Below, one piece after another: positions 1,019 to 49,163 of a DNA stretch of 64,000 nt. How positions within the stretch are numbered: position 1 is the first letter of the stretch; each line of letters starts with the position of its first letter. Origin of the DNA: Podarcis vaucheri (taxonomy: Eukaryota). The position numbers and the translations under genes are program-made. Location of the stretch: the NCBI GenBank assembly GCA_965113315.1, contig OZ220365.1. The stretch is one strand, 5' to 3'. Under the pieces are notes generated by a model that worked only from the letters and a program-made list of their open reading frames with translations, made no database searches and was not told the DNA's origin.

Positions 1019-1022
1019 CTTG

Positions 1023-21108: not shown

Positions 21109-21378
<270 letters not shown>

Positions 21379-22573
21379 TAATATTAGTGCATAGCACTTT
21401 GTGTTTCTCTTTAAAGTCATTTCAACCTTTCACTAGTTTAATGCCACTTGAGCTGTCATGACTCCCCACTGTCCCAAATAAGAATTCTGTAAGTTGTAGT
21501 TTGGTGAGAATACTAAGAATCCTCTGTTTCAAGATTCCTAGCTTCACCTCCAAATCTTATTTCCCTGGGTTTCCTGGGGAGAGGGGTTGACCATTTAAAC
21601 CAGTTTAAGTGTAAATATCTCCTTCCCCACCCTCCAAAAGAATTGTACATACTTCCTGTTTAATCTGCCGTCTTAGGTTGCAGCAGCAGACTTGGTGTCA
21701 ACCAGAACATGATGTTGCCATTTCAGAGTCCTAAGTGTACCTTACATGCTATAGAATTAGTGCAAAGTTGGCAGTAGCACAAGAATTAAAGGCTACTCTG
21801 ACAGTCCTAAAGACTTGGGCAGTGAACTTTGCCACTATGTAAAATATAACCAGCGTTACTGTGCTAGGAATATTCACAGAAGTAGAGGAGCAGCTGATAG
21901 CACCAAGGACAGCTCTAATGATCTGAGAGGAGAACTGAACTTTCTGAGTAGCTCATATTTCTTTTACTGTGTGGATTGTGATTTCTTTTTAAATATTTCC
22001 TGTTGCTGCAGCCCTCATAGAAAGAGTGTTTCAAGTCTCACAGATATACAGATTGCTCTGCTGGGTTAGACAATGATCCAACATTTTGCTTCTGAGAGCA
22101 ACCAGAAAAGAAGCTTGCAAGCAGGGCATAATGAAGATAGCCGTTCCTTGTGTGTGTCCTAAGCATCTAGTTCTCTGAGATAAACACCCATGCAAGATTA
22201 AACTTCCAAATATGGATGCTCAATTTTGTGGTGATGGTAATAGCCATTAATAGGCAATGGATTTGGCTAAACCTTTTTTTAAAAGCTATCAAAGACACTG
22301 GCTATCATTACGGGGTGTGCTAATGAATTTCGTGAGTTAGTCAGGTGTTGTGCATAGGGGAACTTGATATATCTTTTTTCCTCTGCCCTGACCTTACAGC
22401 TAGCCAGTTTCAGTGGGTGATCTGGTATAGTTCCTCATTTACCCCTTCAACATGTTGGGATGTAAATTATTTGGTGATGCAGCTGCATGTTTGAAATAAT
22501 TTTTTCAAACATATAAAGCAAGTTTAAAAGTGCAAGTTAAAAATGAGTTCTTAGTTATAATTCATTTTAAAGG

Positions 22574-22697
22574 GGAGGTCTTTAAGCAGAGGCTTGACAA
22601 CCATATGTCAGGAGTGCTCTGATGGTGTTTCCTGCTTGGCAGGGGGTTGGACTCGATGGCCCTTGTGGTGTATTCCAACTCTATGATTCTATTCTAT
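22574..22697 (+). mobile_element. CR1 LINE 3' end
   Basis: ggaggtctttaagcagaggcttgac...ttccaactctatgattcta tail. Confidence 0.85.
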
Positions 22698-22857
22698 ACT
22701 CCTATATGGTTAGTTTTTAATGTTATTCTTGGGGGACCCCCCCATGACCATCACAGAGAAGATCACAACTGTTTCTTTTCTACAATGCATTTTATAGCAG
22801 TTGCTTTTAACAAGTGGAGGAAATGTGATTCTTGAGTGTTTGCATTAAATTAGATAA

Positions 22858-23415
<558 letters not shown>

Positions 23416-24003
23416 TATTCTGTTACCCCAGTGTTCCACAGATGTAGTTAGTAGGTCACCACACTGTTGACTAGGTATTTTGTGCACAAATGTGGTCATT
23501 AGGAAAAGCACAAAGTGAGAAATCTCTCCCTTTTCTAGAGCACATTCCAGGGAATTCAGAGGGGGCGGTTATTTTGTGCTGGGTAAGAAAGAGAAATATC
23601 TCCCTACTCTGACATACTTGGGGGAGGAGTCAGCATTTCACTTTGTCCCAGTCTTGGAGACACTGAGAAGTGTTCAGTCTCTCATACTGCTTCCAAGTGC
23701 CTCCCCAGAGGACATGAGGGAGAGGAGAGATTGGTTTTTTTTAAAAAAATCACACTGATATCTGCCAATAGTCTGAAGTGGCAGGACTCTTACACTTGTC
23801 TCTTACACTTGATTGTAAGTAAACCCCACCCCATCCCCAAAGTCCTCTAAAATTTGGGGGAAGTGCACACTTGCACTCACTTTGGGAGGGCCTTTGTAGT
23901 GATGAAAATGAATCACAGTTTGGTGCAAAAGGAAGAGTTGGGTCCCTTTCCTGGTCTTTTATATGTGCCAGGTGGGTTATGGGTTCAGGAGCAACCACAG
24001 ATA

Positions 24004-24245
24004 CAGTGGTACCTCGGATTACATACGCTTTAGGTTACATACGCTTCAGGTTAGAGACTCCACTAACCCAGAAATAGTACCTCGGGTTAAGAACGTTGCT
24101 TCAGGATGAGAACAGAAATCGTTCTCTAGTGGCGCATCGGCAGCAGGAGGCCCCATTAGCTAAAGTGGTGCTTCAGGTTCAGAACAGTTTCAGGTTAAGA
24201 ACGGACCTCCGGAACGAATTAAGTACTTAACCCGAGGTACCACTG
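24004..24245. mobile_element. Tigger/pogo-like MITE
   Basis: Perfect 14-bp TIR CAGTGGTACCTCGG; TA on both sides. Confidence 0.9.
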
Positions 24246-24988
24246 TAATAGCTTTCTACCGTTATTTGGATCCGTTTGTTTTTTGAATTAGGGATGGAGA
24301 GAGGACTGCACTCTTCCCCCTCCCACCCCACCTAAATAAATAAATAATACAACATACCATAAAACCTTTGTGACAGAGCAGAGGTTTTATGTTGCACTTC
24401 TAAAGATGTTTTGTGGTTGTGACTTGAAAATGAGAGTTTCAGTGGTATATGAAAGGTGACGATGTACGAATGCTGGCTCATTTTGGAATTTTGATTCTGC
24501 TCCCTTAATCTTCTTTTGATTACAGTGCTTTAGCAAGCTAATAGCATGTTTCAGAGACTGGTTTTAAATTTTCTGTGATATGAGGAAGGTGTTTTGAGAA
24601 AGATGGGATGAAGCCTGAGGCCATCTCTTAATATGATGAAAAGCTCTGCTGGGTTTTTGTAATAAGAACTCCTGAGTAAAAAAGACTTTATTTTTAGATC
24701 TGACTGGTGACATCTTCATTCCTTTTTCACTTCTATTATCTTTTACTCAAATGGCTTTATTTCTACACGTTTTAGCTTGATTGTTGCTCTCCTCCAAATC
24801 CCTTCTGAGCTGAAGTATCAGCCAGAACTGAACACAGGGCTCTCACAACATCATGGCCACAGCTGGCCTAAAATACATTGGCGCCTGAGGCAGGAAATCC
24901 ACATGGCATTTTACTCCTGGCTAAGGAGTGGGAGAGAATGGGAGAGTGAAGAATTACTGAAAACATCCTGATTTTTAAAGGACACATA

Positions 24989-25575
24989 CCGTATTTTTCG
25001 CCCTATAGGACGCACTTTTTCCCCTCCAAAAATGAAGGGGAAATCTGGGTGCGTCCTATGGGGCGAATGCAGGCTTTCGCTGAAGCTTGGAGAGCGAGAG
25101 GGGTCTGTGTGCACCGACCCCTCTTGCTCTCCAGGCTTCAGGAAGACATCCGCAGCCTAGAGTGCCCGGCGCTTCGGGAACACACCCACAGCCTAGGCAA
25201 CCCTGCGGGAGGTCCCGCAGGGCTGTCTAGGCTGCGGATAGCAGCCTGCTTCCCGGAGCGCCGGGCGCGCTGAAGCAGAGTGCCCCTCGCGCCGGGCAGA
25301 CATCTGCAGCGTGGGGAGCCCTGCAGGATAGCAGCCTGCCACCCGGTGCGTGAGGCGCAGAGCGCCCCACGCACCGGGCAGACATCGGCCAGCCCCACAA
25401 GCTTGGGGGACAGCAGGGAAGCGCAGCGCCGCCATCCCACTGTTCCTCAACCTGTTTCGGTTTCCCCGACCTGGTTTTGGGGGGGAAATAAAGGGAATTT
25501 CCCCCCCTTTATTTCCCCCCAAAAAAACTAGGTGCGTCCTATGGGACGGAGCGTCCTATGGGACAAAAAATACGG
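24989..25575. mobile_element. Tc1/mariner-superfamily (Tc2-like ends) non-autonomous element, 587 bp, CpG-rich
   Basis: TA|CCGTATTTTTCGCCCTATAGGACGC ... GCGTCCTATGGGACAAAAAATACGG|TA; sub-terminal gcgtcctatggg repeats. Confidence 0.88.
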
Positions 25576-25672
25576 TAGATTCTTTTGTCTGAGATGATTG
25601 CCTCAGCTGGCTAACTCATGGTCTGGTCGGTCTGGGCTATGGCTGTTCCTAATGGGAGCTAATGCTTTAAGA

Positions 25673-25995
25673 GCATAAGAAGAGCACTGCTGGATCAGGC
25701 CAAAGGTCCATCTAGCCCAGCATCCTGTTCTCACAGTGGCCAACCAGATGCCTGGAGGAAGCCTGCAAACTGGACCTGAGTGCCACAGTGCTCTGCACAC
25801 TTTTGATTCCCAGCACTTGTGATTCCAGCAGTGAATGTAGAACATAGATATTGCAGCTGGTAGTTGATAGCCACAAATGTATCTAATCATTTAAAGCCTT
25901 CCAAGTTGTTGGCCACCACTGCAAATTGTGCGACCAATTTCCATAGTTTCACTAAGCCACTGTGTGAAGAAGTACTTAATTTTGTCTGTCCTGAA
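25673..25995 (-). mobile_element. older CR1-type 3' end (cataagaagagc...ctggatcaggccaaaggtccatctag family)
   Basis: Same family recurs at ~27880, ~30428-30680 and ~45025-45260. Confidence 0.65.
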
Positions 25996-27108
25996 TCTTC
26001 ATATTGGAATCATCCAATGAAGATTCAGATGGTGGATTTACTCTGCTTGATTAGTTGTTCTGTGATGCTTCCCCAGTACTACCATATTATTGTTGTGTTG
26101 TGGGGCTATAGCATAACAACAGCAGGACTAAGAACCCCAGAACATTTGCGGTATGAAAAGTTACAGGGTTTTAGCAGGAATTGCAAGATATAAACTGATT
26201 GGAAATGGAGCAGTATGACTACCTCAAAACATTTCCTGGTGCAGATAGTATGGAAAAAGGGATCATGTATGATCGCTGCCTTCATGAGCACAAATCATCA
26301 TAAATGCACAATAAAAGGGATGTTTAAAGGGGCCCTTTAGTGCCCATTCACCCAGTTTGGAGATATCCATAATAATAATAATTATGAGAGCACTGATAAA
26401 ACCATCCTATTGATTTTCAGTGCAAGAAATTCCTGAGCACATGTGTGGGGTTTTTTTTAGAGTTCATTTGCTTTTCCCTATTCAGTATGACAATACAGGT
26501 CTCCACCAATCCTTCAGCATGGTAAATAATGCTCCAAGCCTTTTCAAATTACCCCTAACAGACCCTGCTGAACAATGCAGTGAGATGGAGATATATACAA
26601 AAATTACAAGCTTCACAAGGCTAGTAAACTGCAAAAGAATGAGAGGAATGTTGGTTTATGATTACAAGAATCATAAGAGTTACTCAAGTAGAGCAGGAAA
26701 GGAGTTATTAAGGAGATGGTATGATTCATTCTTTCTGTAAATGTAACTCTGTTCCATTACAGGTTTACATTAATAGGTAGCTAGCCCATTTCCAGGATGA
26801 TGTGAAAATAGCATATTGATATTCTAATTTCACACGATTGTCTTTTGGGAACTTGCAGAGTATATCCCTACTTATTTCAGCTATGGAAAAAATTGAATTG
26901 CCTTTGTAACAGTCAAGGCAACAGCAGCAACCCTTAAATAAGACTGAAACTCTTGCAGGCAAGGGGTAATGGTGTCAGCATCGCCCTTGAGCCAGTGCCA
27001 CCAACTGGACTCATACATTTCAGCCCCGACTGGGCTAGGCGAGCTGGGTAGCACTTCCAGAGACCACCTTCTGCACAGGAACAGGTCAAAGTGCTGTGGA
27101 CTCACAGC

Positions 27109-27561
27109 TTAGAGTTGTGAGCACCGGATTCACTCCCACAAGAAGACAGTCGTCGCACAGCAGAGTACAGCAGACTCTAGCAGAGTATATAAACAACTCG
27201 GAGAGCAGCTCTGTAGAATATCTTCTTTATTCTATCTACAACTATACAAACTATATACAGAGCTTGATAGGTCTAAGCATAAATGAATGCTGCACTGCAC
27301 TGAGTGTCTGCAGCTGCTCTTAGCAGCAACCTTATCTCTACACACGATCTCTAACACTCAGTCTCTCTCTCTCCGACACTGACTGACTGACTGACTTGGT
27401 GCTGGAGCAGAATAAGTAGAGAGCAGAACACGCCCTCTCTGGAGAATCAGCAGACTCCTCAGGAGATTCTTGGATATGGGAGGGGTGAAATCTCCTCATA
27501 TGGGTCAGGCAGAGAACCAGGGAATCAGGTCGTAAATGACTCTCTCAGATGGATCTCCAAC
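27109..27561 (-). mobile_element. possible solo LTR (boundaries uncertain)
   Basis: Minus-strand AATAAA (~27226), internal (CTGA)n/(CT)n tracts and repetitive U5-like texture; TSD not found. Confidence 0.35.
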
Positions 27562-27879
27562 TGTTTTCTTCAGCAACTGCTGCTGGATCCTTGTGAGCCA
27601 GATGGAATGGGCCTTACCATTCAGATATCAAGATATACGGTCAGATAATATTCAGTCTTCTTCTGCAGCCAGACCAAAGTTTCATATCCTTTCAAACTCA
27701 AGTGCTCTTCAATAGATACAGTTCATGGATTTATGAAGTTTTCAGTGGTTAAGTGATTTAGTAAAGTACCTACGTGTGTGAACTAGTGCAGAGGTGTTCA
27801 AGCTAGTGGTGACACTATTTAATTTAAAAAGATAAGTCTTTAAGACAAAAAAATTAAATTAATTCATAGAGAGCAAAGA

Positions 27880-28450
27880 AGAATATACGAAGAACCCAAC
27901 TGGATCAAATCAATAGCCTATCTGAGCTAGTAGCTTATTTCATCATCACCACCATCTGTTTATTTGTATGCCACTTTTCCACAAAATTGTGCCCAAAGTA
28001 GCTCACAACATCTCAGGCAAACAATTAAGTACAGCGGGAAAACCACTAGCAGGATAAGAGCTCAACAGCACAATAGCACTGATGCTCCCTTGTGACTGAG
28101 ATTCAGAGGCATTGTACCCTTGATTCTGGCAGAAGTAGACTGCCAGCATGACTAGTAGTTATTCAGAACTTTATCCTCCAGGGATTTGTCTAATCCCTTT
28201 TTAAACTTGTTTAGGTTGGAGGACATTCCCACTGAATTGCATAATGTAACTCTGCCCCGTTGAAGTGGCACTTCTTTTTGTCTGTTCTTCAGCTTTATAA
28301 GATGACCCCGGGTTCTAGCATGAAGGAAGATGGAGAAAGACCTGTTAACTTTATCTGCACCATCCATAATTTTATACACTTCTGTCATACCTTTCTTATC
28401 TTTTCTTCTAAACTACCCCCCCCCCGGCAATTGTAACTTTTCCTCATATG
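27880..28450 (-). mobile_element. old CR1 3' fragment
   Basis: Minus peptide MTEVYKIMDGADKV...RTRGHLIKL...KFKKGLDKSLED. Confidence 0.75.
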
Positions 28451-28949
28451 GGAAATACTTTTTCTCTTTCCCCACGTTGTATGTATGTTTGCAGAAAGAT
28501 TCTCAACTGTTTTTCTGCCTGCTGAGGCTTTATGAGGAATGAGTATCAGTAATTTTAAGCATGAATATGGATGCAGAGTATCTCTTTACAGTCAGACTTC
28601 TTATGCTAAGTATTGAAATTTTAAGAAGAGCTTTTACAACTGAGTCTGTTCCAAGTATGAGAAGTATCAAATCGGAAAGATGATTCTGTTTCTGGGATTA
28701 GTTTTGATTGTAGAGTGCATCCAGACATTTTTATGGAGAGTTCAAGTGAGGAGAAATCACTGTTGCCAGATTCTGTGTGTTTGGAAGATTCATTATGAAT
28801 TGCCTTATTTGTTTAATGTTATGACTTCTGGAAAAAAAAGTGTGTTGCGTTTTTTCCAATTTAAGATTCCAGCTTGAAACATGTGATCAGTTAGTGACTA
28901 GGCGGTGCATGGTTATGTAGATAAAAAGTAATAGCTAAGTAAGGAGATA

Positions 28950-30425
28950 TCTGGATGGAAAACTTTGCTGCTGGTAAGCAGAATCATTTTCGATGGCCAA
29001 AAAGGAGGGACTTCAGTTGAAAGGTCATTGGTTAGATTCTGTCCATATTTGAGCATGAAAGACAGTGATTGGGAGAGACCCATCATGGGAAGATATGAGT
29101 CAAATATGTGCTTGTTAGAATCTCGATTACTAAGGAAAGGGTAACTGACAGCACAAATATGGTACTGATTAAAGATGAATGGAAGGGGGGGAAGTTGCCT
29201 ATAATTCCAGAAGTGACAGTATTCATGTCAGGAAACTGACATCAGAGCAGAAGGAGAAGGAGAGTTTCTCTGACTCTGCAGGAGAAGGTACTAGCACCAG
29301 GGGGAGGCGCAGCTTAGTGGAGGGGGAAGGAAATCAGCGTAACACCAAGGATCCAGGAGAGCCAATGGAGAAGGAGGGGGAAGGGCTCTAGGATTCTTCC
29401 CTGGACATCAGTGAGGAGAGCACTGGTCCTCCACTATCCACGCCCTCCCTGCGCAGAAGGCTTCCGCGCAATGAGAGACGGAGAAGACTGGGTGTCAAAC
29501 AGCTTTTATGCTGGAAAAGGTTTAAGAAACGCCCACAGACAGATTCTGCTAGCGACTGAGGCAGCCACGCTGAGATGGGCTGTCCAGTCAAGACGGTTTA
29601 ACCCAGGCAGTTAAGCTCCTCAATGGGGACAGTTTACGCACGAGTAACTCCAATCCACTGCAATTCAGAAAGGAGATGGAAGAAGTGGGGGCAAAGAGAG
29701 TTAGGGTAGAGTAAAATCAAGAGACTTTGAAAGCTGGGTTGTGGAGTTCCATTCCACCAGATACCTGGTACCTGATTCCCCACACCCTGAACAGGATTTT
29801 GAAATCCTGCAGCCCATGTGTTGGTCAGAATGTAGGGTAACAGGCAATGGTTTTCATATGTGGGGGACTTGTGCTGCAATTAAAAAGGGGTTGGGAACTA
29901 GTTTTGCATGAAATGGGATTATGAACTGGTCAAATACATCAACCCAATCCAACACACTCTCTCCTGTCCCTCTTTGAAAGGAACAGGGCAATATGTTTTG
30001 TATAAGGAACTCTTGGTCATCTTGTTTCTTGCAGCCACATTAACAATTGCTAAAAGGTGGGGAAGAACAGGTGAAGTAGTACCAACAAATACGGTTGCTT
30101 GCCATACTGGAAAACCTATCAAAATAGGTTGAAGCACAGTGAAATCTAATGATAGGCAAAGATAGTTTTTGTTGAAGCTGGCATTGCTTTATTACTTATG
30201 CTCCACATAAAGAACATGATTGATTGACTCACTCAACCAACCAACACATGGGCTCCTCTGGAGAGATGTTTTGGGTTGGACTTCATTGTGTGGTGGTAGG
30301 ACTGTTGCTCAGTTTGATGTAACAAAGCTTTTCTTTTTGGGCTGCTGATTATTTGGAAATAGTGCTGCTTGCTCAGTTTCATTTGTTACTATTAGCTAAA
30401 GTAAAATCAAATAAAAATACTAAAA
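28950..30425 (+). mobile_element. old L1 ORF2 3' remnant, interrupted by the 29226 LTR
   Basis: Broken peptides WYLIPHTLNRI, CWSEC..GNGFHMWGTC (cysteine-rich motif), LAATLTIAKRW; A-rich tail at ~30410. Confidence 0.55.
29226..29652 (+). mobile_element. solo LTR, family B copy 1 (Gypsy-like)
   Basis: Starts TGTCAGG; colinear with the reverse complement of 54592-55030; flanks attca/atcca (5-bp TSD with 1 mismatch, tentative). Confidence 0.75.
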
Positions 30426-31160
30426 AGAAAGAAGAGCCCTGCTGAATCAAGCCAAAGTCCCATCTAGTCCAGCATTCTGTTTGCACAATGGCCAGCGAGA
30501 ATCTCCTGGGAAGCCCACAAACAAGTCATGAGTGCAGCATCACTCTCTAGTTCATGTTCCCTGGCAAGTGGTATTTGGAGGAATTCTGCCTGTGATATTC
30601 AGCGTTATATATAGCCACCCTGACTAGTAGCCATTGATGACCTTATCCTCCACTAATTAGTCTAATCCCATTTTCAAGCTCACTTTATTTGCTAGCCTTA
30701 GTTTTCATGTGCCCTTGGCAAAGCATTTTGGGGAACTTTCCTAAAGCCAAACTTAGACAGATGTTTGATGTGAGAGAGCTAGGGACAAGATCTCTTGCAT
30801 TTTTAAAAAAAGCATCTATCTATATATTCTCACTCCCATGAGCAAACAGCAGATTTTTTAGTGTGATTTCAATCACGAAAACAGTGGGGGTAGTGCAGAA
30901 GGAGAGGGAGTGTTCACCCAATTCCACCATCCTGATCAGATTCCTCCCCACACCAAGTTTCCATTGAGCTTTGATAGAGAGAAAAAGCAGCAGGACATCT
31001 GATCACAGCATGCCTAGTTGTGCCCTCCACTTTTCCAGACTGAATGCACAATAATCTGGGCTGCTAAAAAATGCCAAGCCTGAACAGAGAGGATATTTTT
31101 TCCCCATTTTTCCGTGGATTGTATTTAGCTACTGTGTTGTAACTGATGCTGAAAAATTAG

Positions 31161-31346
<186 letters not shown>

Positions 31347-32039
31347 TGACCTTGTTTTCCCTACTTACAGAGTTTGCATTTCCTGTTGTTGATGCTGTTA
31401 CTTTATCCAAGAACTTTACTATTAAGTGAGCATAGTTATCCCTGTAATTGAGAAAAAAAATGGCAGCCATCCAGTTGATACAGTGCTGTTCCTCAGGGGT
31501 GTTTGATTCCTTCCTTTTACGATATGAGGCTTGATTTGGGCAGGGTGGCAGCCATCCAGTGCGTACAACTTGTGAATAGCAAGGTCCATGCCTCAGTCAC
31601 ATGCATGGCCAGCTTAATAGACTTTGATAATTTGCACTTTGCAAATAGTGTACAGAAAGATGCAATGTGAGAAGGTTAGGAGTTTCATTACAGATTTCAT
31701 TAATTGGTTTAAGAATTATTTCTTCCCAAAGAATACCAGGAACAGTAATTGTATGAGGCTGTCCAGGACTCTCTTGCAGATAATTCCCTCCCTAAACTAT
31801 GGTTCTTAGGATTCTTTTAAACTGGGGGTAAACTGTTGTGGGTTTAATGTATCAGTATGCCAGAGGGTTTCCCAGATAGTAGAGATAAAACCCAAGTGTC
31901 AGTTCTACACTGAGACCACGTTGATCCAGTCCTAGCGATACATTACCCTGTCTCAAAGCAGTTGGCATTTATTTAAATTTATATTTAAAACTTGTATCCC
32001 TCCTATTTTAAAAAGAAACTGAAGGTGGTCTGGAAACTT

Positions 32040-32775
32040 CAGCTGGTACAGAATTTGGCAGCCAGCTTGCTCACCATGGCAAGATGGTTTGAGCATATTA
32101 CACTGAACTTGGCCCAACTGTACTGGCTGCCAATTAGTTTTGACCTATAAAGCCCTAAATGGCTCAGGACCATGATATCCCAAGGACAGTCTCTCCCCAT
32201 ATGAGCCAACCTGTACCCTGCGATCATCCTCTGAGGCCCTTATTTGTGTACCTCCTCCATGAGAGGTCTGGAGGGTAGCAACACAATAACGGGCCTTTTC
32301 TATGGTAGCTTCCCATTTGTGGAATGCTTTCCCCAGGCAGGTTTGCCTGGTACGTTCATTACATATCTTTAGCCGCCAGGCAAAAATATTTCTCTTCAAC
32401 CATCTATTTGGCTGATTAACAACCTATGGCTTTTTAAACATGTTGGGGGTGTGTGTGTCATTGGTTTGTTTATGTTTTTGTTTTATTCTGTATTTTGTTT
32501 TCTCATTTTATATTTTTCTGTTGTGGACCACCCTGGGAGCTTTGTATGAAGGGCAGTATACAAATTTAATACAGGACAATAGTAATAGTAGTAGTTGTAA
32601 TAATAATAATACTAAGAAAGGTGCTGTTTTTGACCTATAAAGCCTTAAATGGCTCAGGTCTGCAATACCTCAATGACCTCCTTTCCCCATATGAACCAAC
32701 CTGAGTCCTGCAATCATCTGAGGGCCCTTCTTCATGTACCTTTTCCATGAGAGGTACAGAAAGCAGCAACAATTA
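32040..32775 (+). mobile_element. L2-clade LINE 3' fragment followed by a second partial copy
   Basis: ttgacctataaagcc-taaatggctcagg at ~32140 and ~32630; ctgagg(g)ccctt; (AAT)n tail at ~32600. Confidence 0.75.
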
Positions 32776-33341
32776 GTGGTGGAACTTGCCGAAAACCCAC
32801 CTAAAGTTGTTGAGCACCCACCGCCACGATTGCCATGCCAACACAATTGCCGCAGCAACACGATCATGGCGCTGCACAGCCCGGGGAGTTCCGACTGAGT
32901 GTCTAAGTAAATTTCAATTCATGTGGGTTGAGTGGGAGGCCTTGGTCCATCTTGGCTTCATCTTCAAAGCAATTTAGGTCATGTTGTGTTATTTTTTCTT
33001 TGTTTTGATAAAGGAAAAACTTTACTAGGCAAGCGTTTAACAATTAGAAGTATTTTTTCGTGCTGAGCATATGGATTACTGCAAACACTGTCTAAAGGTA
33101 GGATGAAAATGAAACTGGTTTTCAGAGCATGTAAGCCAGGGAAAGCTACAGCATTTGGGATGAGCTGCAATTATTGAGCTAGAAAACAGGGTTGATTAGT
33201 AGCTGGGGCTGCAAATGCCCTTGTAAGCAGGTGGCTGATAACTTTAAGCATAATTATATTAATAACTGGTATGATCTCTCTTATTACATGTGAAAAATAC
33301 ATATTTTCCCCAACTCTTCCTATCCTTCTGTTTTTCTCTAG

Positions 33342-33503
<162 letters not shown>

Positions 33504-33638
33504 TGATTATGTTAATTCATTCTCACAATACTGTTGATGCTGGTTGGGCAGGTACACTTGATGGGATAGAAACTGAACTTATCAGGTTCTCCCTGTTGTA
33601 ACAGAGAGACTGTATTTATTTTGAAAACATGGTTTTTC

Positions 33639-33689
<51 letters not shown>

Positions 33690-33697
33690 CATCATCA
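33639..33697. repeat. (ATT)n/(ATC)n microsatellite
   Basis: Direct reading. Confidence 0.95.
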
Positions 33698-33803
33698 TTT
33701 ATTACTCACCCTTCGCTGTAAGGTATACATGTGCCTGTTGCTCAGTGTCTTGGCTCAAAACCAAAGGAAGGAGAAGTGCTGTTTTAAGAAGTTCACATTG
33801 TTT

Positions 33804-34461
33804 TGTTGCAGGGGATAAGGATCAGCCAGACGCAGCAATGGAGAATAAGAAGGTGAAGTTTATTGCCAGGCAATAAGGACCCAGTTGGAATCTCTTCCAA
33901 AGAACTGGGACCCCGATTGACAGAAATACAGGGGTCTTTATACCTGAGCAAATCACAGCAAATCATAGATCATAAGACAATCATGAAGGACTCATAACTT
34001 GGTCAGCAAATATCAGCCAATCAGCAAGCAGTTGTCACGCTCCTAGCTACTGGTATAGCACTGGTCCTGCACAGGGTTCAAGTTCCGCTTTCCAATGCTC
34101 CCCAGTGACGCTCAGTCTAACCTTTCCCCTAGTTATGACAGGACAGGGAGCTTGGACATTTTGTGGTTTTGCTCTTCCTGTTCTGTGGATTAATTTAGCC
34201 TGTTCCTGATGGGGAATTTGTACCAGAATCCCTGACTCATGTCTTGTCCGGGGTGCACAGATGTTTCTAGGGGAAAGGTCGGTTCCTAACTTTGCTGTTT
34301 CAAGCAGTTTGCATTTTAGCTAAGGCACAGCTTCCCTTTTGATTCAAGTGGATTTATAAAATACTGTAATCCTTGATTCGTGTAAGCATATATTGAATAT
34401 ATTGATTATTGATAACTGGTTATATGAATAATGTAGGGGTAGCCCTTCCTTCCTTGCCTCA
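33804..34461 (-). mobile_element. ERV solo LTR, 658 bp (4-bp TSD, class I-like)
   Basis: Minus strand TGAGGC...GCAACA; TSD GTTT at 33800-33803 and 34462-34465; TATAAA (~33940) then AATAAA (~33860) on minus; CCAAT at ~34017. Confidence 0.82.
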
Positions 34462-35589
34462 GTTTCATTAGTTTACTTTTCCTGAAGCTCCCATTTTTTA
34501 AACATGTCTGGTGTGGGAAGTTGGAAAGTTGGGGGGTGTTATTTTGGAACTAATTTTCTCCATCATTTTGAGGTGTTCTCTTTTAAAACAAACAAACAAA
34601 CAAAAAATTGTTTTCATCCTGTGGCCTTTCCTACCTTCCTTCTTTATGGTTTCAGCATTATCAGCAGGTATGTACAGGCGAATCAGCATCCTCTATCACT
34701 GGTGCTCTGAGGCACATAATGATGTTTCTTGCCTGCAAGGTGCTTCCTTGCAGGGGCCTTTTGTGAACATGGAGGAGCTCTGTATGTTCAGAGTTGGGAG
34801 TAGGGCAATGTTTTTCTCAGTAAGCTGATCCTCTGCTAAAGGTAATTTGAAGTCTCAGAAGCATGTAAGAAGCAGCACTCTCCTATCTCACTCCATGTGC
34901 TCTACAGTTTTCCCGGTGTTTAAGATGTTTTGTTTCTGAGTCTAGGCTGTCTTGTGTCTTCATGCTCTGTGATTACCTCAGACAGATTAACATTGCCACC
35001 AGATCAGTGGGAAAATGAATAAATATTAAAATAAAGTATGGAGACTGATATCCATTGATTGCATCATACTTCATAATACTAAGGTATTAATAAAAGGATG
35101 CCATGTATGAAATGTGGATTATAATAAGGCAAATAAGTGCAGCCTGCAACAAAAGTTGCAGCGCATCCCCAATACCTAACCAGGAGTGCTGCTCTTCTGC
35201 GCTCCAAGCAGCCTGGAAAAGAAGCGTCATAGAGCTATTTCGAGGCTTGCTTGCACAGAACTTGTTTCTTTCTCATCCTTCTCCCACTATGCAATACAGG
35301 GTTAAAGGGTTATTTTTAAAAAACGGCATTGCATGAATCTCCCACCCACCCAGTTCTCTCCTCCTGGATCCTATAAGGCCTTAAGGACTCAAGCAGTCTA
35401 ATTCCTGTTCTCCTCCGCCCTTGTCCTTTTTAAAAACCTGACATCTTCATTTCATGACTCAGCTGCTATCAGCCATAGATTTATGCAAGCTGCCCAACTT
35501 CTGATGGCTGCATAAGGAGCTTACAGATGAGCTGAGATTTAAGAAGGGCACATGTAAGAAATGGGTAAAAAGGGAAATCACGAAGGAAG

Positions 35590-36910
35590 AGTATACAAGA
35601 GTATCCAGCAGGAAGAAGGCCAGGCAGGCCAAAGCTCAGAATGAGTTCAGGCTTGAAAAAGAGGTTAAAATTAATAATAAAGGTTTCTTTGGCTGTGTTT
35701 GAAGCAGGAAGAAGGACAAACATGTCCTTCTTCATGGAGAAATGCTATTGGATGACAGAGAGAAGGTGGAACTGCTCAACGCTTGCTTTCTATCTCTCTT
35801 TACCCAAAAGAGAAGCAGTGCCCAACCTGGTGATAACATCATAAGTGATGCAAGGAGGGAGCTGCAGCCCAAGGTAGGAAATACGTACTTAGAGTAGATT
35901 CAAATCTCCAGGGCCTGATGAGCTGCACCCAAGGGTACTAAAGGAGCTTGTGAGTCTTTGTCTGTAATCTTTGAGAATTCCTGGAGAATAGGTAAGGTCC
36001 CTGCAGACGAGAGGCAGGCAAATGTTGTCCCCTTCTTCAAAAGGGGTGAAAAGAAGACCTAGGTAATTACTGACTGGTGAGCTTGACATCAATACCAGGA
36101 AAGTCCTAGAACAGATAATTCAACAGTTGGTCTATGACCACTTAGAAATGGATGATGTGATTACTAAGACCCAGCATAGGTTTCTCAAAAATGTGTCTTG
36201 CCAGATGAATTTCATTTCTTTTTTTGATAGAGCTATAAGCTTGGTGGATCAGGAGAATGGATATAGTGTATTTTGATTTCAGTAAGGCTTCTGACAATGT
36301 CCCCCCATGATATTCTTGTAAGGAAGCTGGTAAGATGTGAGTTGAATGAGGTAATTTTTGGATGGATTAGTAGCTGGTTGACTAACTGAACCCAAAGAGT
36401 GTTCACTAATGCTTCCTCATCATCCTGGAATAAAGTTACAAGCAGGGTTCTGTCCTGGGCCCGTTGTTGTTCAATGTCTATAAAGTATCCAATTGACTTG
36501 GATACTATGGTAACTATGGACATACAACAGATGGATAATGGTAAAAGACGCAGTAAACTTAAAAGGAATTGAGAGGATGATCATCACATTTGCAGATGGC
36601 AACAAACTAGGAAGGGTAACTATTGCCGCAGAAGATGGAATTGGGATTGAAAATGTCCGTAACTGATTGGAGAACTGGGTCCAAACTAACAAAATAAATT
36701 TCAGTAGGGACAAACGTAAGGTTCTATCCTTAGGCAGAACCAGCTGCACAAATATATGAATCAGGGAGACGGGACAGGACCTGACTTTCTGGTACTGTTT
36801 GTGAAAAGGATCTGGGGTCTTAGTAGACCACAGGCTTAGCATGAGGGAACAGTGTGCTGCTGCAGCAAAAAAGGAAAAAAAGGTCACTGCTATTCTAGGC
36901 TGCATCAACA
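35590..36910 (+). mobile_element. degraded CR1 ORF2 (RT region)
   Basis: KSPGPDELHPRVLKEL, ANVVPFFK, DFSKA, QGSVLGPLLFN and FADG(D)NKL motifs with stops and frameshifts. Confidence 0.88.
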
Positions 36911-37331
36911 GATTCCCAGGTAGTCACTGCTCCTCTGACACAAAGCATGTCATCCTACTTGGTAGATACCAAAGTGCAGAGCAGAACACCCAGTTAGTAC
37001 TCTTTCTTCTATAGCATCAGTTTGAATAGTTGGCTGCTGAATGGGTGAGTCCCACCCTGACTAATCCAAATAATGGTCAAGCTCTCATTTGCCTTCTTAG
37101 TTGTCCTGCTGGAAAGTGGACAGGTAGATTGTGGGTTTGAAAGGAAAGTATAATGGAAGTCCAGCTTCTGTGCAGGGCATTGCTATATATTTATAATGTA
37201 ATTTGCTAATGGTTTGTCCGCCAAGTGTAGCTCAGCCCACTTGCATGCCACCATTGTAGTCTACTTTGCACATTTGATGAAGGTTGCAGTTAGCAAAATG
37301 CCACAGTGTTTCTTCTCCTTTTAAGTAGTTA

Positions 37332-37840
37332 CAGTGAGGGGGGAAAGTATTTGATCCCCTGCTAAATTTGCCCGTTTTCCCTCTGACGAAGAAATGACCA
37401 GTTCATAAGGTCCTGGAGTGGCCTAGCCAGTCTCCAGACCTTAATCCCATCGAAAATCTGTGGACGAAGCTGAATGTTCAAGTAGCTACACATCAGCCTC
37501 AAAATCTTACTGACTTGGAGAGGATCTGCAAAGAGGAGTGGGACAAAATACCTCCTGAGATGTGTGTAAACCTGGTGGCCACCTACAAGAAACGTCTGAC
37601 ATCTGTAATTGCCAACAAGGGTTTTGCCACCAAGTACTAAGTCATCTTTTGCAAAGGGATCAAATACTTATTTCACTCATTATAATGCACATCAATCTCG
37701 GACTTTTGTCTTCTGGGTATCTGGGGGTTTTCCTGTCATTATTCTGTCTCTCACAGCTACAGTAAACCTACCATTAAAATTATGGACTGGTCATTTCTTT
37801 GTCAGAGGGCAAGCGGGCAAATTTAGCAGGGGATCAAATA
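37332..37840 (+). mobile_element. internally deleted Tc1 (IR/DR type) DNA transposon with transposase C-terminus
   Basis: TA|CAGTG...tatttgatcccctgctaaatttgcccg inverted with cgggcaaatttagcaggggatcaaata; 37407-37640 reads [19 protein letters not shown]...ANKGFATKY*. Confidence 0.92.
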
Positions 37841-37930
37841 GAGTAGTACCTCTGGATGTGAACGGGATCCGTTCTGGAGCCACGTTCTGGGTCACGATTT
37901 GCCACTTCCACGCATGTGCGTGACGTCATT
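37841..37930 (+). mobile_element. fragment of the 23203-family MITE
   Basis: gtacctctggatgtgaacgggatccgttctggagcc matches 23208-23243. Confidence 0.75.
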
Positions 37931-40900
37931 CAACTAGATTAGAGCATGAGTAAATAAAAAGGCTTATTTATCTGTAATAATGGTTCTTTCAGTTGCCTTT
38001 AATGGACCGCCTCACAACTATTCTACTTTTTTCCTTTGAAGAAAATGGACAATGAGGTTTCTGGTTCTGTAGCAATGGGTTCAGGGCTGCAATTCCAGAT
38101 AAACACAAAGAATTAATTCAAAAGAAACAGCCCTCTTATAGTTGTAATGTATTGGTTTGCTGTAATGTTATTCTGCTTATATTTAGGGTAGCATGAAATT
38201 GTGGTTCAGCAAAATCTGCCTATTTTATCTGTTTTACAGATGTTATCCATTCAAACAAAGTTTACCATGTTAAGTAGTGATGTGAAAATGCTTCTAAATA
38301 TTTGCCATCATGCATAAGTTTAGCAATGTGCTCTACCATACTAGGACTAGTCTTTCATTCTGAATTCATGTTGTCAACCAGATGCCTGAGTATAGGAATT
38401 AGTTTTACTGTTGCCAGCAGTTCAGTAGCCTTTAATTCATAATGCTTTTCTCACAGTGCAAACCCTGGTTCTCTGTTTGAAAACTGACCCGCACTTCTAT
38501 TATTAGCGCAACTCTCCCATCCCCTTGAAGCTCTCTGCTGAATACATCTTTGCTGCTTTCTCTTTCATGGAATGGCAAGGGGAAAGCAGCATTTTTGTCA
38601 TGGCAAGCTTCTCCTGTTTGCATGAATTGGCAATGCGCTGCTGTGTTTTGCATGCTGCTGCTTCTGCTGAGTCAGCCCTAGACCATTGATTAGAGCTCTG
38701 TCTCCTCGTGATTCAGACCGCACTGCAGTAGTTTGCAATGCTTGACTGGGGATATTGTATGTATTTGTAAGTGCAGTTTTGTGTCCGTGTGTATCTGTAT
38801 GGCTGAGGCAGAATATTAGGAAAGAGAATGCTTGATCAGGTTTGAAAGTTGAAAGCAGCAGAAACCAAAACCCTAATTAAAGAAGATTATGTTTTTAATT
38901 GTTACATGACCAGGTTCCATCTAAAATTGGCACATCAGTGCAAATACTTAAAAATGTAGTTGCTGATACAGGCATTTTCTAATCTCGGTGCAACTATTGC
39001 TACATTTTGAAATATATATTGGAGCAGAACTGTTTTAATAAAATAGCCTCGTGAGTGCTGCATCTGATTGGAACATAGCTGAGTGACTTAGGTTAGACAT
39101 CAGTGCGTTGTTGCATACTATTAACAATATTGCATGAATAACTCAGGAATATAAATGGCAACAGATTGTGATTTCCATGTTTAAATGCTCATTGTCTGCA
39201 ACCAGAATGGCCAGTGCTAGTGCATTGTTTCTGATGCCGGCAGCCTGACCAAAGGCTAATAAAGATGTGGCAGAGAAGTTGCCCATACTGTGATACAAAT
39301 GGAAACAAAAGGTTTCAAGAGTTTAAGATAGATGCTACACGCTGTGTTTACACCTTTCTCTCAGATTTTGTTTGTTATGACCCCATTACGCTTGAGCTCA
39401 TGAAGTGATGAAAACCGAACTGCAAAATGTCACCAACTTTATTATGGTACTTGACCACTTGTGTGAAAGTCAGTTGTTGTGGGAAATATATTTTCAGTTC
39501 CGTGAGGAACAGCATAGTGTTGATGCTTCACAGATGAAAATAGGGACACTTTTATGTACTTGTAATACTGCTAATTATCACATCAAGGGTACCATCCTAT
39601 TTCACACACTCTATTGTATATTTTAGAAAGCTGTCCTTACTCTCTATATTAGAACTCTGTATGTGTTCATTTACTTTAGCCCACCCTGCACTGGTTTCTG
39701 AAGCAGATGTGTTAGTTAACTGGTCCTAAGATATTATGTTTAAAACAAAATGGTACAAATGTTAAGTCTCTCAGTGGAGATAATTGCATTTAATACGGAA
39801 TAGATACAACTCAAGCATAGTCAGCAACATTTGCTATCTTGAGAGTTTTTTTTAGGAGATAAAGGGGAAGTGGTAAATTGGCATTTTATATTTCTGCAAT
39901 TGAGAGAGAATCCACTGATCACATTATTTGAAAATCAGAATTGTGCTTCCTCTTCAAACTTTCTGGATGAAGAATGATAAATTTATAAAGTGGTGAGGCT
40001 GCTTTTGAAATGGCTCTGGCATCACTGTAGCCAGTTCAAACTTAGTTTCTAATAGCCAGGTTTAAACTCTGGGAACAATAGTTCTGTGAATTTGCAGCAT
40101 ACTTGACTAAGTATGGCATGATTGTATGAATCCTTTATGTCACCAAGTCCCCACCCCCCCAATTTCCCAGATCAGGTTTTTACAAAATAAAGGCCAAATG
40201 GGTTAATGTGCCTGTGAGCACATGTAGAAATAAGATAGGTATGGGCACCTGCCTTAAAGCATGGGGGAGGGAAGAACAATTCTGATGGCTAAACCACTGT
40301 GTAATTCGCTCATCTATACATCCACCTTGTAAGTTGCAAAGCTGAAAAACTCACACTGCCAGTAAGGATTCCATTGTGACCTCCCTTGAGCTATTGCTGC
40401 TGTCTTTGCCTTTTAGATACTGTGGGGTGTGTGGCTGTGTGGGTGTTGAATTCTAAAGAATGGCAACTCTAGTAATGCACTCTTAATTCTTTTTTAAATG
40501 GCGCCTCCAGTCTTCCCCAAATACAGATTGGGATGGTGAGTTGACAGGGACAGGTAGCAGGAAATGAGGGCTGTTCTAGATAAATAGGGGCTGTTAAGGG
40601 GGTGGAATAGAGTGGTCCCTGAGAATACAGACTTAGCCATACCCAATTCAGACAGAGACATAGGCAGTAATAGTCAAGACAAATGGTGAAAATCAACAGG
40701 GCAGAAATAAGAAATGATGCCAGTAAATTCAGGCTGAGAAAGTGTCAATGAGCATGTGAGTCGGGGAGATTATGTGGCTTTTACTGCAGCTCTTTCTGCC
40801 TGAAGACAGAAGGTTCTGTACTACCTCACACAGATCAAGCTCCAAAGTCTAAGCCCCTGTGTACCACCCAGGCATAAAGTATCTGCAAAGTGACCAGCTT

Positions 40901-40948
40901 TAGATAATTTAAGCAGTAAAGCCAAGGCATGTGCTGCAAGAGAAGGGA

Positions 40949-40960
40949 AATAATAATAAT

Positions 40961-40997
<37 letters not shown>
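40949..40997. repeat. (AAT)n microsatellite
   Basis: Direct reading. Confidence 0.95.
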
Positions 40998-40999
<2 letters not shown>

Positions 41000-42285
41000 G
41001 TTAAATTGTTGACCTGATTTCAATTCATTTCTGTTTTTATTTCTCTCCATTTTGCATTTTTATTGTCATGGTTTTCTTTGGGTTTCTCTTTGTTTTACAG
41101 TTCTTTTGGGCTCCTTTTTTGAGACTGTGTTTGATGCGTTGGCTTCCCATCCGCTGCTTGTAACCATCTCAGCCATGAGTTGTGAGTGAGCCATCATGAT
41201 GCTTCTTGGTTTCCCCCCACCCCCCTTTATTTTGTGCTTGCTTGTTTTAATTATTATTAGAGTTCTGAGTTCTCCTTTTGTTTTTGCTTTGGCTTTTGAT
41301 GGTATATACTCTTTTGCTTTTCAGGACTGGGACATGTCTCAACTCTTGATGTACAGGCCAAGAGTCTTCTGCATTCTGAGTTCAAAAAAAGTCCTATTCA
41401 GGTGTTCTGATCTCCCACACAAGGAGAATTGTATGTCTCTGTGTGGGCCACATGTGCTAACTCCACCACCACCATTGCCGTCTTTGTCACCCTCCATAAG
41501 TTAACCACCAAACACATGCAGCAGGGAGCCTGTTCTGTTCTTGTAGGCTCCCTGAAAATATTCAGAATCCTGGAACAAACACGGGTTCTAACTTGCACGA
41601 GGAACCTACTATGGCAGAAAAGCCTCCCTGCTTCCTTTCAGCTCACAGAGGGTGAGAGGGTGGTGGCAGAACTGTCACCCCCATTTTTCCGAATTACATA
41701 TGGGATGAGAACACCTCAATAGGGCTGAAGTGCTGGGTCTTTCTGAGATTGCAGTGGCTCAGGACTGTCCTGGATGGGGATTACTTGGAACTTAACGGCA
41801 GCCTCCCCCATTGTTGTACTTGACTCTTACTATTTATGGGAGAACAGAATATGACAACTCCTGTTTATAGCCATTAAGATTAATTCATTCTGAAGCAGAC
41901 AGCATGAAATCCAAGCTTTTTTAGTGGTGGAATCCTAACCATAACAGCAAGGGATGGTTCAACTGTTATGACAAAATAGCTGTATTGTTCTTTCCTTAGC
42001 ACATGCTTCTTTGTTTTCAACCCCAATGGGGACAAAATACTTCCTTTTTTGCTTAGTTTGCTTAGTAGTTGAGCCTGAATTATGAAATTTATTTATCTAG
42101 AAAAGACTTTTTGTGATAGTGCTTAATGATGGGAAGGGGAAGGTTACTATTTCAAATAGGCTATTCAGAACCCCTAATCTCCTAGTTTGGTGAGGAATTA
42201 CAATGGAGTTTATAACAACTGGGATATGAGTCAATGCAGTGGGGAATCAGTGCTTATGGGCAACCAGCAGGATCCTGACAATGAC

Positions 42286-42826
42286 CTGGTTCAAATGTAA
42301 CTATAAGCCAAGGTTTGTTTAACAAACTAAGTTAACTATGAATTATCCCACAGATGATCAAACAAACCAAGGCTTTTTTCTCCATAGCTTTACCATGTTT
42401 TATAGTTGCCCTTGCCTCATGTTTTATTTTTAGTTGAGGGTATGGGGTGAGATGGCCAAACAAACCATGGTTCTGTGCCAACTTTTTAAATGCCTGCTTA
42501 AAACTTTTCTATTCTGCCAGGCCAATCAGGTAATGAAGACTGCATCCTTCCACAATTGGTTAATAGATGTATATTTTAAACTTTTATATGGTTTGATATA
42601 TTTTTATGACATGGCGATATATAAATATTTTTATAACTCAATAAGGATGTCTTGTTTGCACATTATGCCAAGCCACAGTTAGAATAAACCAAGGTTTATT
42701 ATTATTTAAATAAGCCAACAAGCCATTGCTTCAGATCTGCTGGGTACAGTTGATGATGAAACAAACCATTGTTTAATAAGTAATAGTTTACTAAACCATG
42801 GCTTATTGTTATGTGTGAACCAAGCC
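42286..42826. mobile_element. old TIR-bounded element with internal aaaccatggtt-like repeats
   Basis: ggttcaaatgtaactataagccaaggttt versus the reverse complement of aaaccatggcttattgttatgtgtgaacc; L2-like tail piece at ~42480-42635 inside. Confidence 0.5.
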
Positions 42827-43107
42827 AGTGTGAATTAAGGTAATTAATTGGAACAGTTGACAGAAGCATCCTGTGTTATGCAACTATAATAATGGGTTTT
42901 TTTAAAGGGAAGATGAGGCTGACATGATCATTTTCTGTAGTCACTTAAAGGATTACAGAAACCATTTTGGACTTCTCACTTGCTCTGAAGTTTAATTGAC
43001 TTCAAACCGTTGGTTTTTGGTTTTCTTCAAAGATGAAGCTGGGCTCTGTCCACTCAAGGTGGAAGTATTCTCTTTTAGGGAGGGCTTATCCTTAGCAGAA
43101 TTTTTTT

Positions 43108-43148
43108 CAAACAAACAAACAAACAAACAAACAAACAAACAAACAAAC
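43108..43148. repeat. (AAAC)n microsatellite
   Basis: Direct reading. Confidence 0.95.
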
Positions 43149-43400
43149 TGTAATTAGATCTCTTGTAAGCACTGTGAAGTACAAGTGGCTTTTCCACTGT
43201 CATGTTTTAACTGCTCCTGAGGGGTTTATTCAAGGAGCAATTTTTAATGCCTAACCAAAATGCCTACCTAGGGCATCAGTTCAAGTTAACAAATGTAATT
43301 AAAGTGGTTTATGGCCCTGAGTGATAAATAAAACATTAACAGCTCTGCTAATTCTTAAGTTTGATGTTTAAGTTTAATTTTTCATTATCTTTCCCATTAG

Positions 43401-44815
<1,415 letters not shown>

Positions 44816-45427
44816 ATGGATAAACCTTTTTTAACTGAGTACACACAAGCAAAGGGTTTTATGAATATAGCATGGTCTTATGTAGGAGCACCACAAACTG
44901 TTTTTCAGACTTGGTGGGCAAAATACAGTGTCTAATGTTGAAATTCCAAGAAAGTATACCCTTATGAAACCTCTGCTCTTGTCCATGCAAATTGCCTGCT
45001 TGTGATTTCCTAGCATAAACACTGGCCTGCTAGATCACACCAAAAGTCCATCTAAGCCAGAACTCTGTTTTCATCAGTAGCCAGCTAGATGCCTCTAGAT
45101 GCTCACAGGAAGGGCAGGAGGGCCTCAGCTTTCCCCTGGCATTTGTTCCCAGCACTTGGTTCTCGGATGTTTGGAACATAGCAGCACTTACAGCTATCCT
45201 TGCCGGGTGTTGTAATGATAAAACAGTGCTTCGCTGTGATCGGTATTTAAAAGTCATCTGAGCTATTAGCGATCACTGTCTTATGGCTGTGCATAGATTT
45301 ATCATACATAGTTTGAAATAGTAGTAGTATTGCTGATTCCTCTGTGGAATATAGTTAAATACCAGGTCAGTATCATTTGTTAGCTGTTGTAGCTGAGACA
45401 GAATAGCAAATGGTACCCTGCCCACAG

Positions 45428-45800
45428 GGAATTGACGCTTTTGAATTATGGTGTTGGAGGAGACTCTTGAGAGTCCCATGGACTGCAAGAAGATCAAACC
45501 TATCCATTCTGAAGGAAATCATCCCTGAGTGCTCACTGGAAGGACAGATTGTGAAGCTTGAGGCTCCAATACTTTGGCCATCTCATGAGAAGACAAGATT
45601 CCCTGGAAAAGACCCTGATGTTGGGAAAGATGGAGGGCACAAGGAGAAGGGGACGACAGAGGACGAGATGGTTGGATAGTGTTCTCGAAGCTACCAGCAT
45701 GAGTTTGACCAAACTGCGGGAGGCAGTGGAAGACAGGAGTGCCTGGTGTGCTCTGGTCCATGGGGACACAAAGAGTCGGACACAACTAAACAACAACAAC
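45428..45800 (+). mobile_element. BovB/RTE LINE 3' fragment
   Basis: IDAFELWCWRRLLRVPWTARRSN and LQYFGHLMRRQDSLEKTLMLGK; (CAA)n tail; accctgccc at 45415-45423 and 45799-45807 is a probable TSD. Confidence 0.93.
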
Positions 45801-47779: not shown

Positions 47780-48535
47780 TCTTTTTTAATATTATTTTTT
47801 ATTCATTTCTTTTTTAACACAATATTTCAGCATACCAATAACAAAACAAGTAAATTCTTTGCTCTACTGAGCTCGTGACTTCCCTCCATCCCTTCAACCA
47901 GTTTTTAATTTTCAAATCTTTGTGTTGTACTTTATATCCTCTACTTCAGACCTTTATATCCTTATGATCAACTCTGTCTCAATGGTCTATAAAGTTTTGA
48001 GAGTTACAGTTTCTTCGTTGCAGAATTTATATCAATCCCACTAGTGTCTTCACATTTTTACAATAATTATTCATATATCCAATAAATTTACTCCAATATC
48101 TTTGAAACTTTTGGTCGTCTTGGTTCTGGAGCCTGCCTGTCAGCTTGGCCAGTTCCGCAAAGTCCATAATCTTTGTCTGCCACGCCTCAATCATTGGTAG
48201 TTCCTGCAATTTCCATCTTTGGGCTAATAAAGTTCTTGCCGCTGTTCTGGCATACATAAATAGTCTTTGGTCTATAGTTGCAATTTCTTCTCCCATCAAA
48301 CCCAGCAAAAAAGCCTCAGGTTTTTTGGGGAAGGTATATCTAAACATCTTTTTTAGTTCATTGTAGACCAATTCCCAAAATACTTTTACTTTATCACATT
48401 CCCACCACACACTGTATGATAAAAATCTCCATCTTTCTCTCCACATTTCCAACATAGTTTGTTCCTCATCCTATACATATTGGCCAGTTTCACCAGTGTT
48501 AAATACCACCTATACATCATTTTCATTACATTCTG
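47780..48535 (-). mobile_element. L1 3' fragment (ORF2 C-terminus + 3'UTR)
   Basis: MKMMYRWYLT...CWKCGEKDGDFYH, KKPEAFLLG; T-rich tail at ~47780-47815. Confidence 0.9.

Positions 48536-48612: not shown

Positions 48613-49163
<551 letters not shown>

Follow-up and report, generated by a model that had tools for sequence, protein, structure and literature searches.

U3 of two solo LTRs in a lizard genome encodes the end of a chromovirus integrase that carries candidate LEDGF/HRP2-binding motifs

Two LTRs found in a 64,000-nucleotide stretch of Podarcis vaucheri DNA (contig OZ220365.1, hereafter the window) carry the remains of a reading frame that, in whole elements of the same family, is the end of Pol: past the chromodomain it continues across the polypurine tract, enters the 3' LTR and spans U3. 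Both LTRs most likely derive from a chromovirus of the Tf1/sushi type whose integrase tail likely serves nuclear import and is also likely to act as a tether to host chromatin. The evidence comes from the reading frames of whole elements, from selection on the LTR-encoded codons and from motifs located upstream and inside of the LTR.

Two solo LTRs with broken reading frames

The features of the two copies are as follows.

29226..29662, plus strand: solo LTR copy 1, subfamily S1a, 437 bp, TGT...GCA
29221-29225 and 29663-29667: target-site duplication of copy 1, ATTCA
29227..29559, plus strand: U3-encoded Pol/integrase tail frame of copy 1, 110 codons and TGA, broken
29425..29559, plus strand: constrained last 45 codons of copy 1, with a Pro-rich part, an Arg-rich part, a G-V-K-Q-L-L-C-W helix and a basic cluster
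29535..29545, plus strand: self-primer of copy 1, 11 nt, complementary to the primer-binding site of whole elements
54592..55030, minus strand: solo LTR copy 2, subfamily S2a, 439 bp, TGT...ACA
55031-55035 and 54587-54591: target-site duplication of copy 2, CATGT
54699..55029, minus strand: U3-encoded tail frame of copy 2, broken by a frameshift
54699-54833, minus strand: constrained part of the copy 2 frame, with Cys-Trp at 54744-54749
54713..54723, minus strand: self-primer site of copy 2

Because they start with TGT, end with CA and are bordered by 5-bp target duplications, both copies were identified as solo LTRs; they belong to different subfamilies and are ca. 77% alike. The initial annotation had delimited the reading frames correctly but not the repeats, the LTRs being longer than proposed (29226-29662 and 55030-54592). 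Its description of the frame was recovered by translation: both copies read from LTR base 2 to a shared TGA, the lesion being an in-frame stop at 29389-29391 in copy 1 and a frameshift in the G run at 54897-54903 in copy 2. Its hand count over the last 58 codons was exact, with 3, 7 and 15 differences at codon positions 1, 2 and 3, respectively, and with 12 codons that differ synonymously and 11 non-synonymously. When 25 changes were placed at random (5,000 trials, with models of transition bias and of 8-fold CpG bias included), the mean was 4.6-5.4 synonymous codons and the probability of reaching at least 12 was 0.0006-0.0036.

In copy 1, the Cys-Trp pair localizes at 29509-29514 and the last 45 codons match the pattern of a bipartite nuclear localization signal (NLS; see below). 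The start of this LTR (29226-29241) forms a small perfect hairpin with 6-bp arms and a 4-nt loop, which also codes for the first residues of the tail.

Pol read-through and self-priming in whole elements

Whole elements correspond to LTR pairs ca. 5.1 kb apart and have no env. In the one whole element that was submitted to Pfam, domains occur in the order Retrotrans_gag, zf-CCHC, RVP_2, RVT_1, RT_RNaseH, H2C2, rve, SH3_Tf2-1 and Chromo, the chromodomain being C-terminal to the GPY/F-SH3 region. Past the chromodomain, the Pol frame goes through ca. 90 acidic residues and the polypurine tract, enters the 3' LTR at base 2 and crosses U3 to the TGA; the integrase extension comprises ca. 200 residues, about half of which are coded by U3. 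A Pol tail that continues beyond the polypurine tract and into the 3' LTR, one of two origins initially considered for the frame, is thus seen directly in whole elements: in 15 of the 27 whole-element stretches with a chromodomain match (a count that includes two duplicates of one insertion), nothing interrupts the frame between the chromodomain and the LTR stop, the other 12 having private stops or frameshifts. Since the U3 frame is continuous with Pol in whole elements, it is taken here as an integrase tail and not as an accessory gene.

The primer-binding site pairs with an LTR-internal site over 11 nt in 16 of 18 elements and over 10 nt in the other two. Compensatory changes between the primer-binding site and the self-primer were found in S2 (4 elements) and in two further elements (L147 and L158), and none of the tRNAs tested for had its complement in the primer-binding site. 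Among nine more distant LTR pairs, three showed self-priming over at least 10 nt, and a scripted search gave 6-9 nt in the other six. The self-primer at 29535..29545 would represent the 5' end of the transcript and the U3/R border, in which case, with a start at 29535, the frame would span all of U3 and end ca. 24 nt into R. When raw reads from five sequencing runs were mapped onto two whole elements, coverage was low for either strand, most reads aligned only in part and no pile-up marked a start or an end, which is why the start site is still given as inferred; among the runs listed as containing the sequence, none was recorded as RNA. The LTR has no conserved AATAAA or TATAAA. With U3 upstream of this inferred start, a solo LTR would be unable to express the frame from its own promoter, and the frame in solo LTRs is a relic.

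The second origin considered initially was an accessory protein comparable to nef or sag, expressed from a transcript of its own or from solo LTRs. An in-frame ATG does occur at column 47 in nearly all S1, S2 and S4-S6 copies, but it is missing in 7 of 7 S3 copies and the LTR edge has no start codon; together with the continuity with Pol and the location of U3 upstream of the inferred start, this makes a separate gene extremely improbable. Based on its domain order, self-priming and 5-bp target duplication, all read from the sequence, the parent is assigned to the Tf1/sushi-type Gypsy chromoviruses, in a lizard host of lacertid type according to the best matches of one host exon and of the element's proteins.

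Selection on the U3 frame

Values of dN/dS were calculated pairwise on real copies only, with within-group divergence subtracted. After dropping frameshifted rows, the groups contained 23 (S1a), 35 (S2a), 7 (S3), 7 (S1b) and 4 (S2b) copies, and the 8 rows removed from the set correspond to 3 late frameshifts and 5 pattern misses. The purifying selection suspected from the two window copies is borne out between subfamilies and is strong on the last 45 codons, for which net between-subfamily dN/dS was 0.09-0.23 in 4 of 4 comparisons at kappa 1 and 3, with upper bounds of at most 0.75. For the first 64 codons, values were 0.34-0.56 at kappa 1 and 0.49-0.80 at kappa 3, three of the four intervals spanning 1 in the latter case; the first 65 or so LTR codons form a disordered spacer under weak constraint. 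Masking of CpG sites, under which a spurious signal had been expected to vanish, left it in place between S1a and S3 and between S2a and S3 (0.14-0.27) but removed it between S1a and S2a (0.56-0.73, with intervals spanning 1), and the S1b-S2b comparison was borderline at kappa 3 with CpG codons masked. Over the whole frame, S1a and S2a gave 0.59 in the Pol frame versus 0.62 in another sense frame; with S3, values below 1 were restricted to the Pol frame and to the antisense frame that shares its third positions. In 19 whole elements, dN/dS was 0.05-0.08 for the catalytic domains, 0.12-0.25 for the chromodomain, 0.50-0.58 for the LTR spacer and 0.19-0.31 for the LTR end, which is therefore constrained about as much as the chromodomain.

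The conserved block is near-identical between the two window copies, yet it is not frozen DNA since, when compared to S3, it has a net dS of 0.60-0.96 for a dN of 0.05-0.11: synonymous changes occur at codons for Leu, Arg, Gly, Gln, Cys and Phe, leaving the residues as they are. Promoter constraint alone, which had been named as what might explain the block away, does not account for it, as this is the part with the highest synonymous divergence from S3. A related explanation would be that U3 is open only so that Pol terminates close to the poly(A) site, giving a short 3' UTR that avoids decay, with the conserved end reflecting a constraint on promoter or self-primer DNA. Such a role would agree with the near neutrality of the first 64 codons, with the location of stops near the inferred start site in several families and with the overlap of the last codons with the self-primer, but not with the synonymous variation just described at the codons of six conserved residues; as a general explanation it is very unlikely, being disfavoured for the last 45 codons, and it may explain the spacer.

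FxGF motifs upstream of the LTR

Two motifs, F-x8-FxGF and F-x9-FxGF, occur in the segment that connects the chromodomain to the polypurine tract, with acidic Ser/Thr linkers of 8 and 9 residues, respectively, that are conserved across families. Their sequence and spacing agree with those of motifs known to bind LEDGF/HRP2. Host motifs taken from solved LEDGF complexes (JPO2, PogZ and MLL1) read F-x8-FVGF, F-x10-FAGF, F-x8-FYGF and F-x14-FLGF, and the combination of a predicted helix ending in Phe with an 8-residue acidic linker is that of PogZ and JPO2 motif 1. Among 200,000 shuffles of the extension, 0.29% contained one motif and none contained two. An in-frame FxGF motif follows 45 of 49 distinct chromodomains, and across 15 aligned copies, with identities as low as 30%, the Phe/Gly core shows little or no variation, the F, G and F of motif 2 being the same in all of them. 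Motif 1 has a dN/dS of 0.07-0.15 (a third comparison being saturated); the region of motif 2, which has an Arg at the x position, has a dN/dS of 0.26-0.57 with two of three intervals spanning 1. AlphaFold, run on 15 copies, predicts the 201-residue extension to be disordered (mean pLDDT 54, pTM 0.14) except for two helices, at residues 6-13 and 181-188, that correspond to FxGF motif 1 (pLDDT about 65) and to the Cys-Trp motif; no helix is predicted at motif 2.

In the available part of PMC9987994, the TND-interacting motif (TIM) is described as a helix joined to FxGF by an acidic linker that is 8-16 residues long and frequently a target of CK2 phosphorylation, FxGF mattering uniquely for LEDGF and HRP2; the same FxGF consensus is given in the part of PMC6877644 that is available. 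The host genome contains IBD exons of PSIP1 and of an HRP2-like paralogue. Given the resemblance of the motifs, binding of the FxGF pair to the TND/IBD domain of LEDGF/p75 or HRP2 is quite probable. Tethering of the LEDGF/HRP2 type could in turn bias insertion toward transcribed, H3K36-methylated gene bodies, a step that we put forward tentatively.

Alternatively, the tail may be a real Pol extension devoted to nuclear import and to general binding of RNA or chromatin, with FxGF motifs that bind another partner or leave insertion unaffected. Acidic disordered tails with aromatic motifs can indeed bind several partners, and the second motif is weakly constrained. Many TND proteins are also reported to read similar motifs (PMC9987994, available part). 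The spacing shared with PogZ and JPO2 motif 1 and the near-invariant Phe/Gly core, conserved at such low identity, argue otherwise, and we regard this alternative as unlikely though worth keeping in mind. A further candidate, the likeness of an L-x-D-S-S sequence to the Ty5 targeting motif, was dropped because distant families do not have L-x-D-S-S.

Decay of the chromodomain cage

HP1 cage positions 1 and 3 are non-aromatic in 47 of 49 distinct chromodomains, which corresponds to the loss of two of the three methyl-lysine cage residues. As a group, these domains lack the three HP1-like aromatics of type I (H3K9me-reading) chromodomains and are type II-like by the definition found in the available part of PMC3059260. 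The only full F/W/Y cage occurs in L165, which represents a separate chromovirus family through the single copy considered (contig C41, 18.82 Mb); in this element FxGF motifs are absent, Pol ends ahead of the LTR and the TATA box is canonical. In a tree based on the SH3-chromodomain region and limited to sequences gathered in this work, motif-bearing elements form one clade with a support of 0.81 when the database relative P0130 is included and of 0.995 without it. P0130 is a basal member of the clade, with one motif and a less decayed chromodomain. Since all motif-bearing elements fall in a single clade, cage loss and motif gain count as one event and do not provide a statistical correlation.

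It is conceivable, with some doubt on our part, that this clade swapped heterochromatin reading for the mimicry of a host motif; the cage would have decayed, tandem FxGF motifs would have been gained and U3 would have been annexed as code for an import-and-docking helix, reaching the tether of HIV by an independent route.

The basic Cys-Trp end and distant families

Distant families were retrieved by an SH3-family search followed by a search with one distant tail. Their LTRs, of 360-410 bp, are entered in the same frame, and their tails are 69-115 codons long and close with G-φ-x-x-φ-φ-C-W, preceded by a basic stretch and followed by more basic residues, the codons being different. The rows of the motif table of distant families were chosen for holding Cys-Trp, and these sequences illustrate the forms of the motif and not its frequency. 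Both FxGF motifs, the in-frame junction and the Cys-Trp motif are kept in far-diverged families, the basic clusters vary among distant families, and the database relatives P0122 and P0129 have ends like that of the LTR tail. A bipartite NLS consists of two basic residues, a spacer of 10-12 residues and a segment with at least 3 of 5 basic residues, and all 88 in-frame copies of S1-S6 conform to this pattern.

By analogy with the NLS linker of Ty1 integrase, the basic end coded by the LTR could be a bipartite NLS that imports the complex, its Cys-Trp helix docking on a second partner; we consider the arguments for and against this assignment to be evenly balanced. The helix could instead be an amphipathic, possibly Cys-acylated anchor to membranes or to the nuclear envelope. 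Cys-Trp basic helices resemble acylated basic helices, a helix is predicted at this place, and G-φ-x-x-φ-φ-C-W is kept between basic runs while other residues change. Its location at the end of an integrase and the bipartite pattern found in every in-frame S1-S6 copy point away from an anchor, as does Ty1 integrase, where a targeting site lies inside the NLS linker (PMC7459421, available part), and an anchor appears quite unlikely. Cys-Trp begins 26 nt before the self-primer in both the window family and L228 (33 nt in L241), and because this distance is shared by two families an overlapping role at the DNA level may exist.

Searches with the tail gave no significant Pfam match (best E 0.21) and no sequence relative in the PDB, where one match had an E of 0.3. 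A word search with the LTR tail retrieved 0 of 107 candidates at E<=0.001; since a profile search found a full relative, P0122, together with P0123, which matches motif 1 only, the blank result of the word search reflects a limit of sensitivity. Three database entries (P0128, P0134 and P0143) correspond to gene models in which the integrase region is fused to a vomeronasal receptor, a KRAB box and an olfactory receptor, respectively, and are probably annotation artefacts.

Genomic distribution of the copies

The host gene context in the window, which is outside of the element, is as follows.

21109..48760, plus strand: TTBK1 kinase exons, at about 21110, 23110, 31300, 33390, 43410 and 48660

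Copy 1 lies in sense orientation inside a TTBK1 intron and copy 2 in antisense orientation beyond the last of the kinase exons identified; the proximity of both copies to a single gene is anecdotal. Other mobile elements of the window include LINE fragments with endonuclease and reverse transcriptase domains at 2-1105 (minus strand) and 43644-44291 (plus strand), and, within 3090-3558, a SINE-like insertion flanked by a 76-bp direct repeat, an unusually long duplication.

In the genome of the same species, each LTR query gave ca. 4,100 candidate copies, 40 of which were scored each time, and an LTR 25-mer had 361 exact matches versus 0 for its reversed control. Among 41 LTRs sampled by exact 25-mer match, 24 were open to the conserved stop, 3 had premature stops and 14 were frameshifted or otherwise altered; shuffled U3 sequences were open in 1.9% of the shuffles.

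Most whole elements are located on contig C41. This pile-up lends no support to gene targeting and may result from low recombination, C41 possibly resembling a non-recombining sex chromosome. Between ca. 20 and 26 Mb of C41 (L115, L118-L141, L145 and L146), one insertion with a shared flank has been amplified about two dozen times, pointing to an ampliconic array. Some 24 loci of C41 in which the frame is shifted before the polypurine tract were considered as an active lineage devoid of the tail; this was rejected, and the loci were interpreted as one amplified insertion because the distinct 3' LTRs of L118, L131, L132 and L138 share the downstream flank of L115, whose tail is in frame. The amplified frameshifted loci were left out of the counts, although L123 and L126 may be separate. 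Also on C41, L031 and L032 are duplicate whole elements lying inside a Copia-like element, with an integrase-like frame in the flank.

Comparison with known systems

Read-through of Pol into the 3' LTR, together with a targeting motif, is described in the available parts of PMC3059260 and PMC3605345 for CRM group A and for some beet chromoviruses, and the layout found here is therefore of a known kind. As far as these two sources go, the lizard element resembles plant CRM group A in its Pol reading into the 3' LTR. CRM elements differ, however, by tRNA-Met priming, by a CR motif that takes the place of the chromodomain and by their plant hosts, while the lizard element has a self-primer, keeps a chromodomain upstream of the polypurine tract, resides in a vertebrate and carries FxGF motifs; on priming and chromodomain position it falls outside CRM group A. 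No report of Pol read-through into the LTRs of vertebrate chromoviruses was found, older subscription papers and repeat-library notes that may describe it lying outside the search.

With Tf1/sushi elements (V-clade), as described in the available parts of PMC6317226 and PMC4600332, the lizard element shares the Gag-PR-RT-RH-IN-chromodomain order, the absence of env, self-priming and the 5-bp target duplication. In the part of PMC3601003 that is available, sushi LTRs are modelled without mention of a reading frame. The motif-less relatives L165 and P0136-P0141 end shortly after a chromodomain with an aromatic cage, whereas the lizard clade adds ca. 200 residues, half of them in the LTR. An LTR, usually taken as a non-coding promoter, can thus be dual-coded over the whole of U3, which matters for the dating of LTRs and for the reading of apparent selection in solo LTRs.

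Ty1 integrase has its site for Pol III (AC40) targeting in the linker of a bipartite NLS (available part of PMC7459421), and the likeness to the lizard tail concerns a C-terminal basic bipartite pattern with a conserved non-basic core between the clusters. This is an analogy only, as Ty1 belongs to the Copia superfamily, unlike the lizard Gypsy element.

The motifs of JPO2, PogZ and MLL1, according to the available part of PMC9987994, share with the candidate motifs of the lizard element an acidic Ser/Thr linker of 8-9 residues and FxGF, after a short helix ending in Phe that in the lizard element is predicted for motif 1, and JPO2 has two motifs in tandem as the lizard element does. The lizard motifs occur in the integrase of an LTR retrotransposon, whereas those of JPO2, PogZ and MLL1 occur in host proteins, PogZ being itself derived from a transposase. 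The viral section of the same review names only lentiviral integrases in its available part, and a literature search conducted mostly at the level of abstracts found no report of FxGF or IBD-binding motifs in a retrotransposon integrase. If the proposed binding is true, it would offer vertebrate chromoviruses with a decayed chromodomain a concrete mechanism of site choice. HIV integrase binds the same IBD through a folded surface, without a motif of the FxGF type, and a vertebrate Gypsy integrase equipped with the linear IBD-binding motif of its host would then represent a second, convergent solution beside lentiviral LEDGF/HRP2 tethering.
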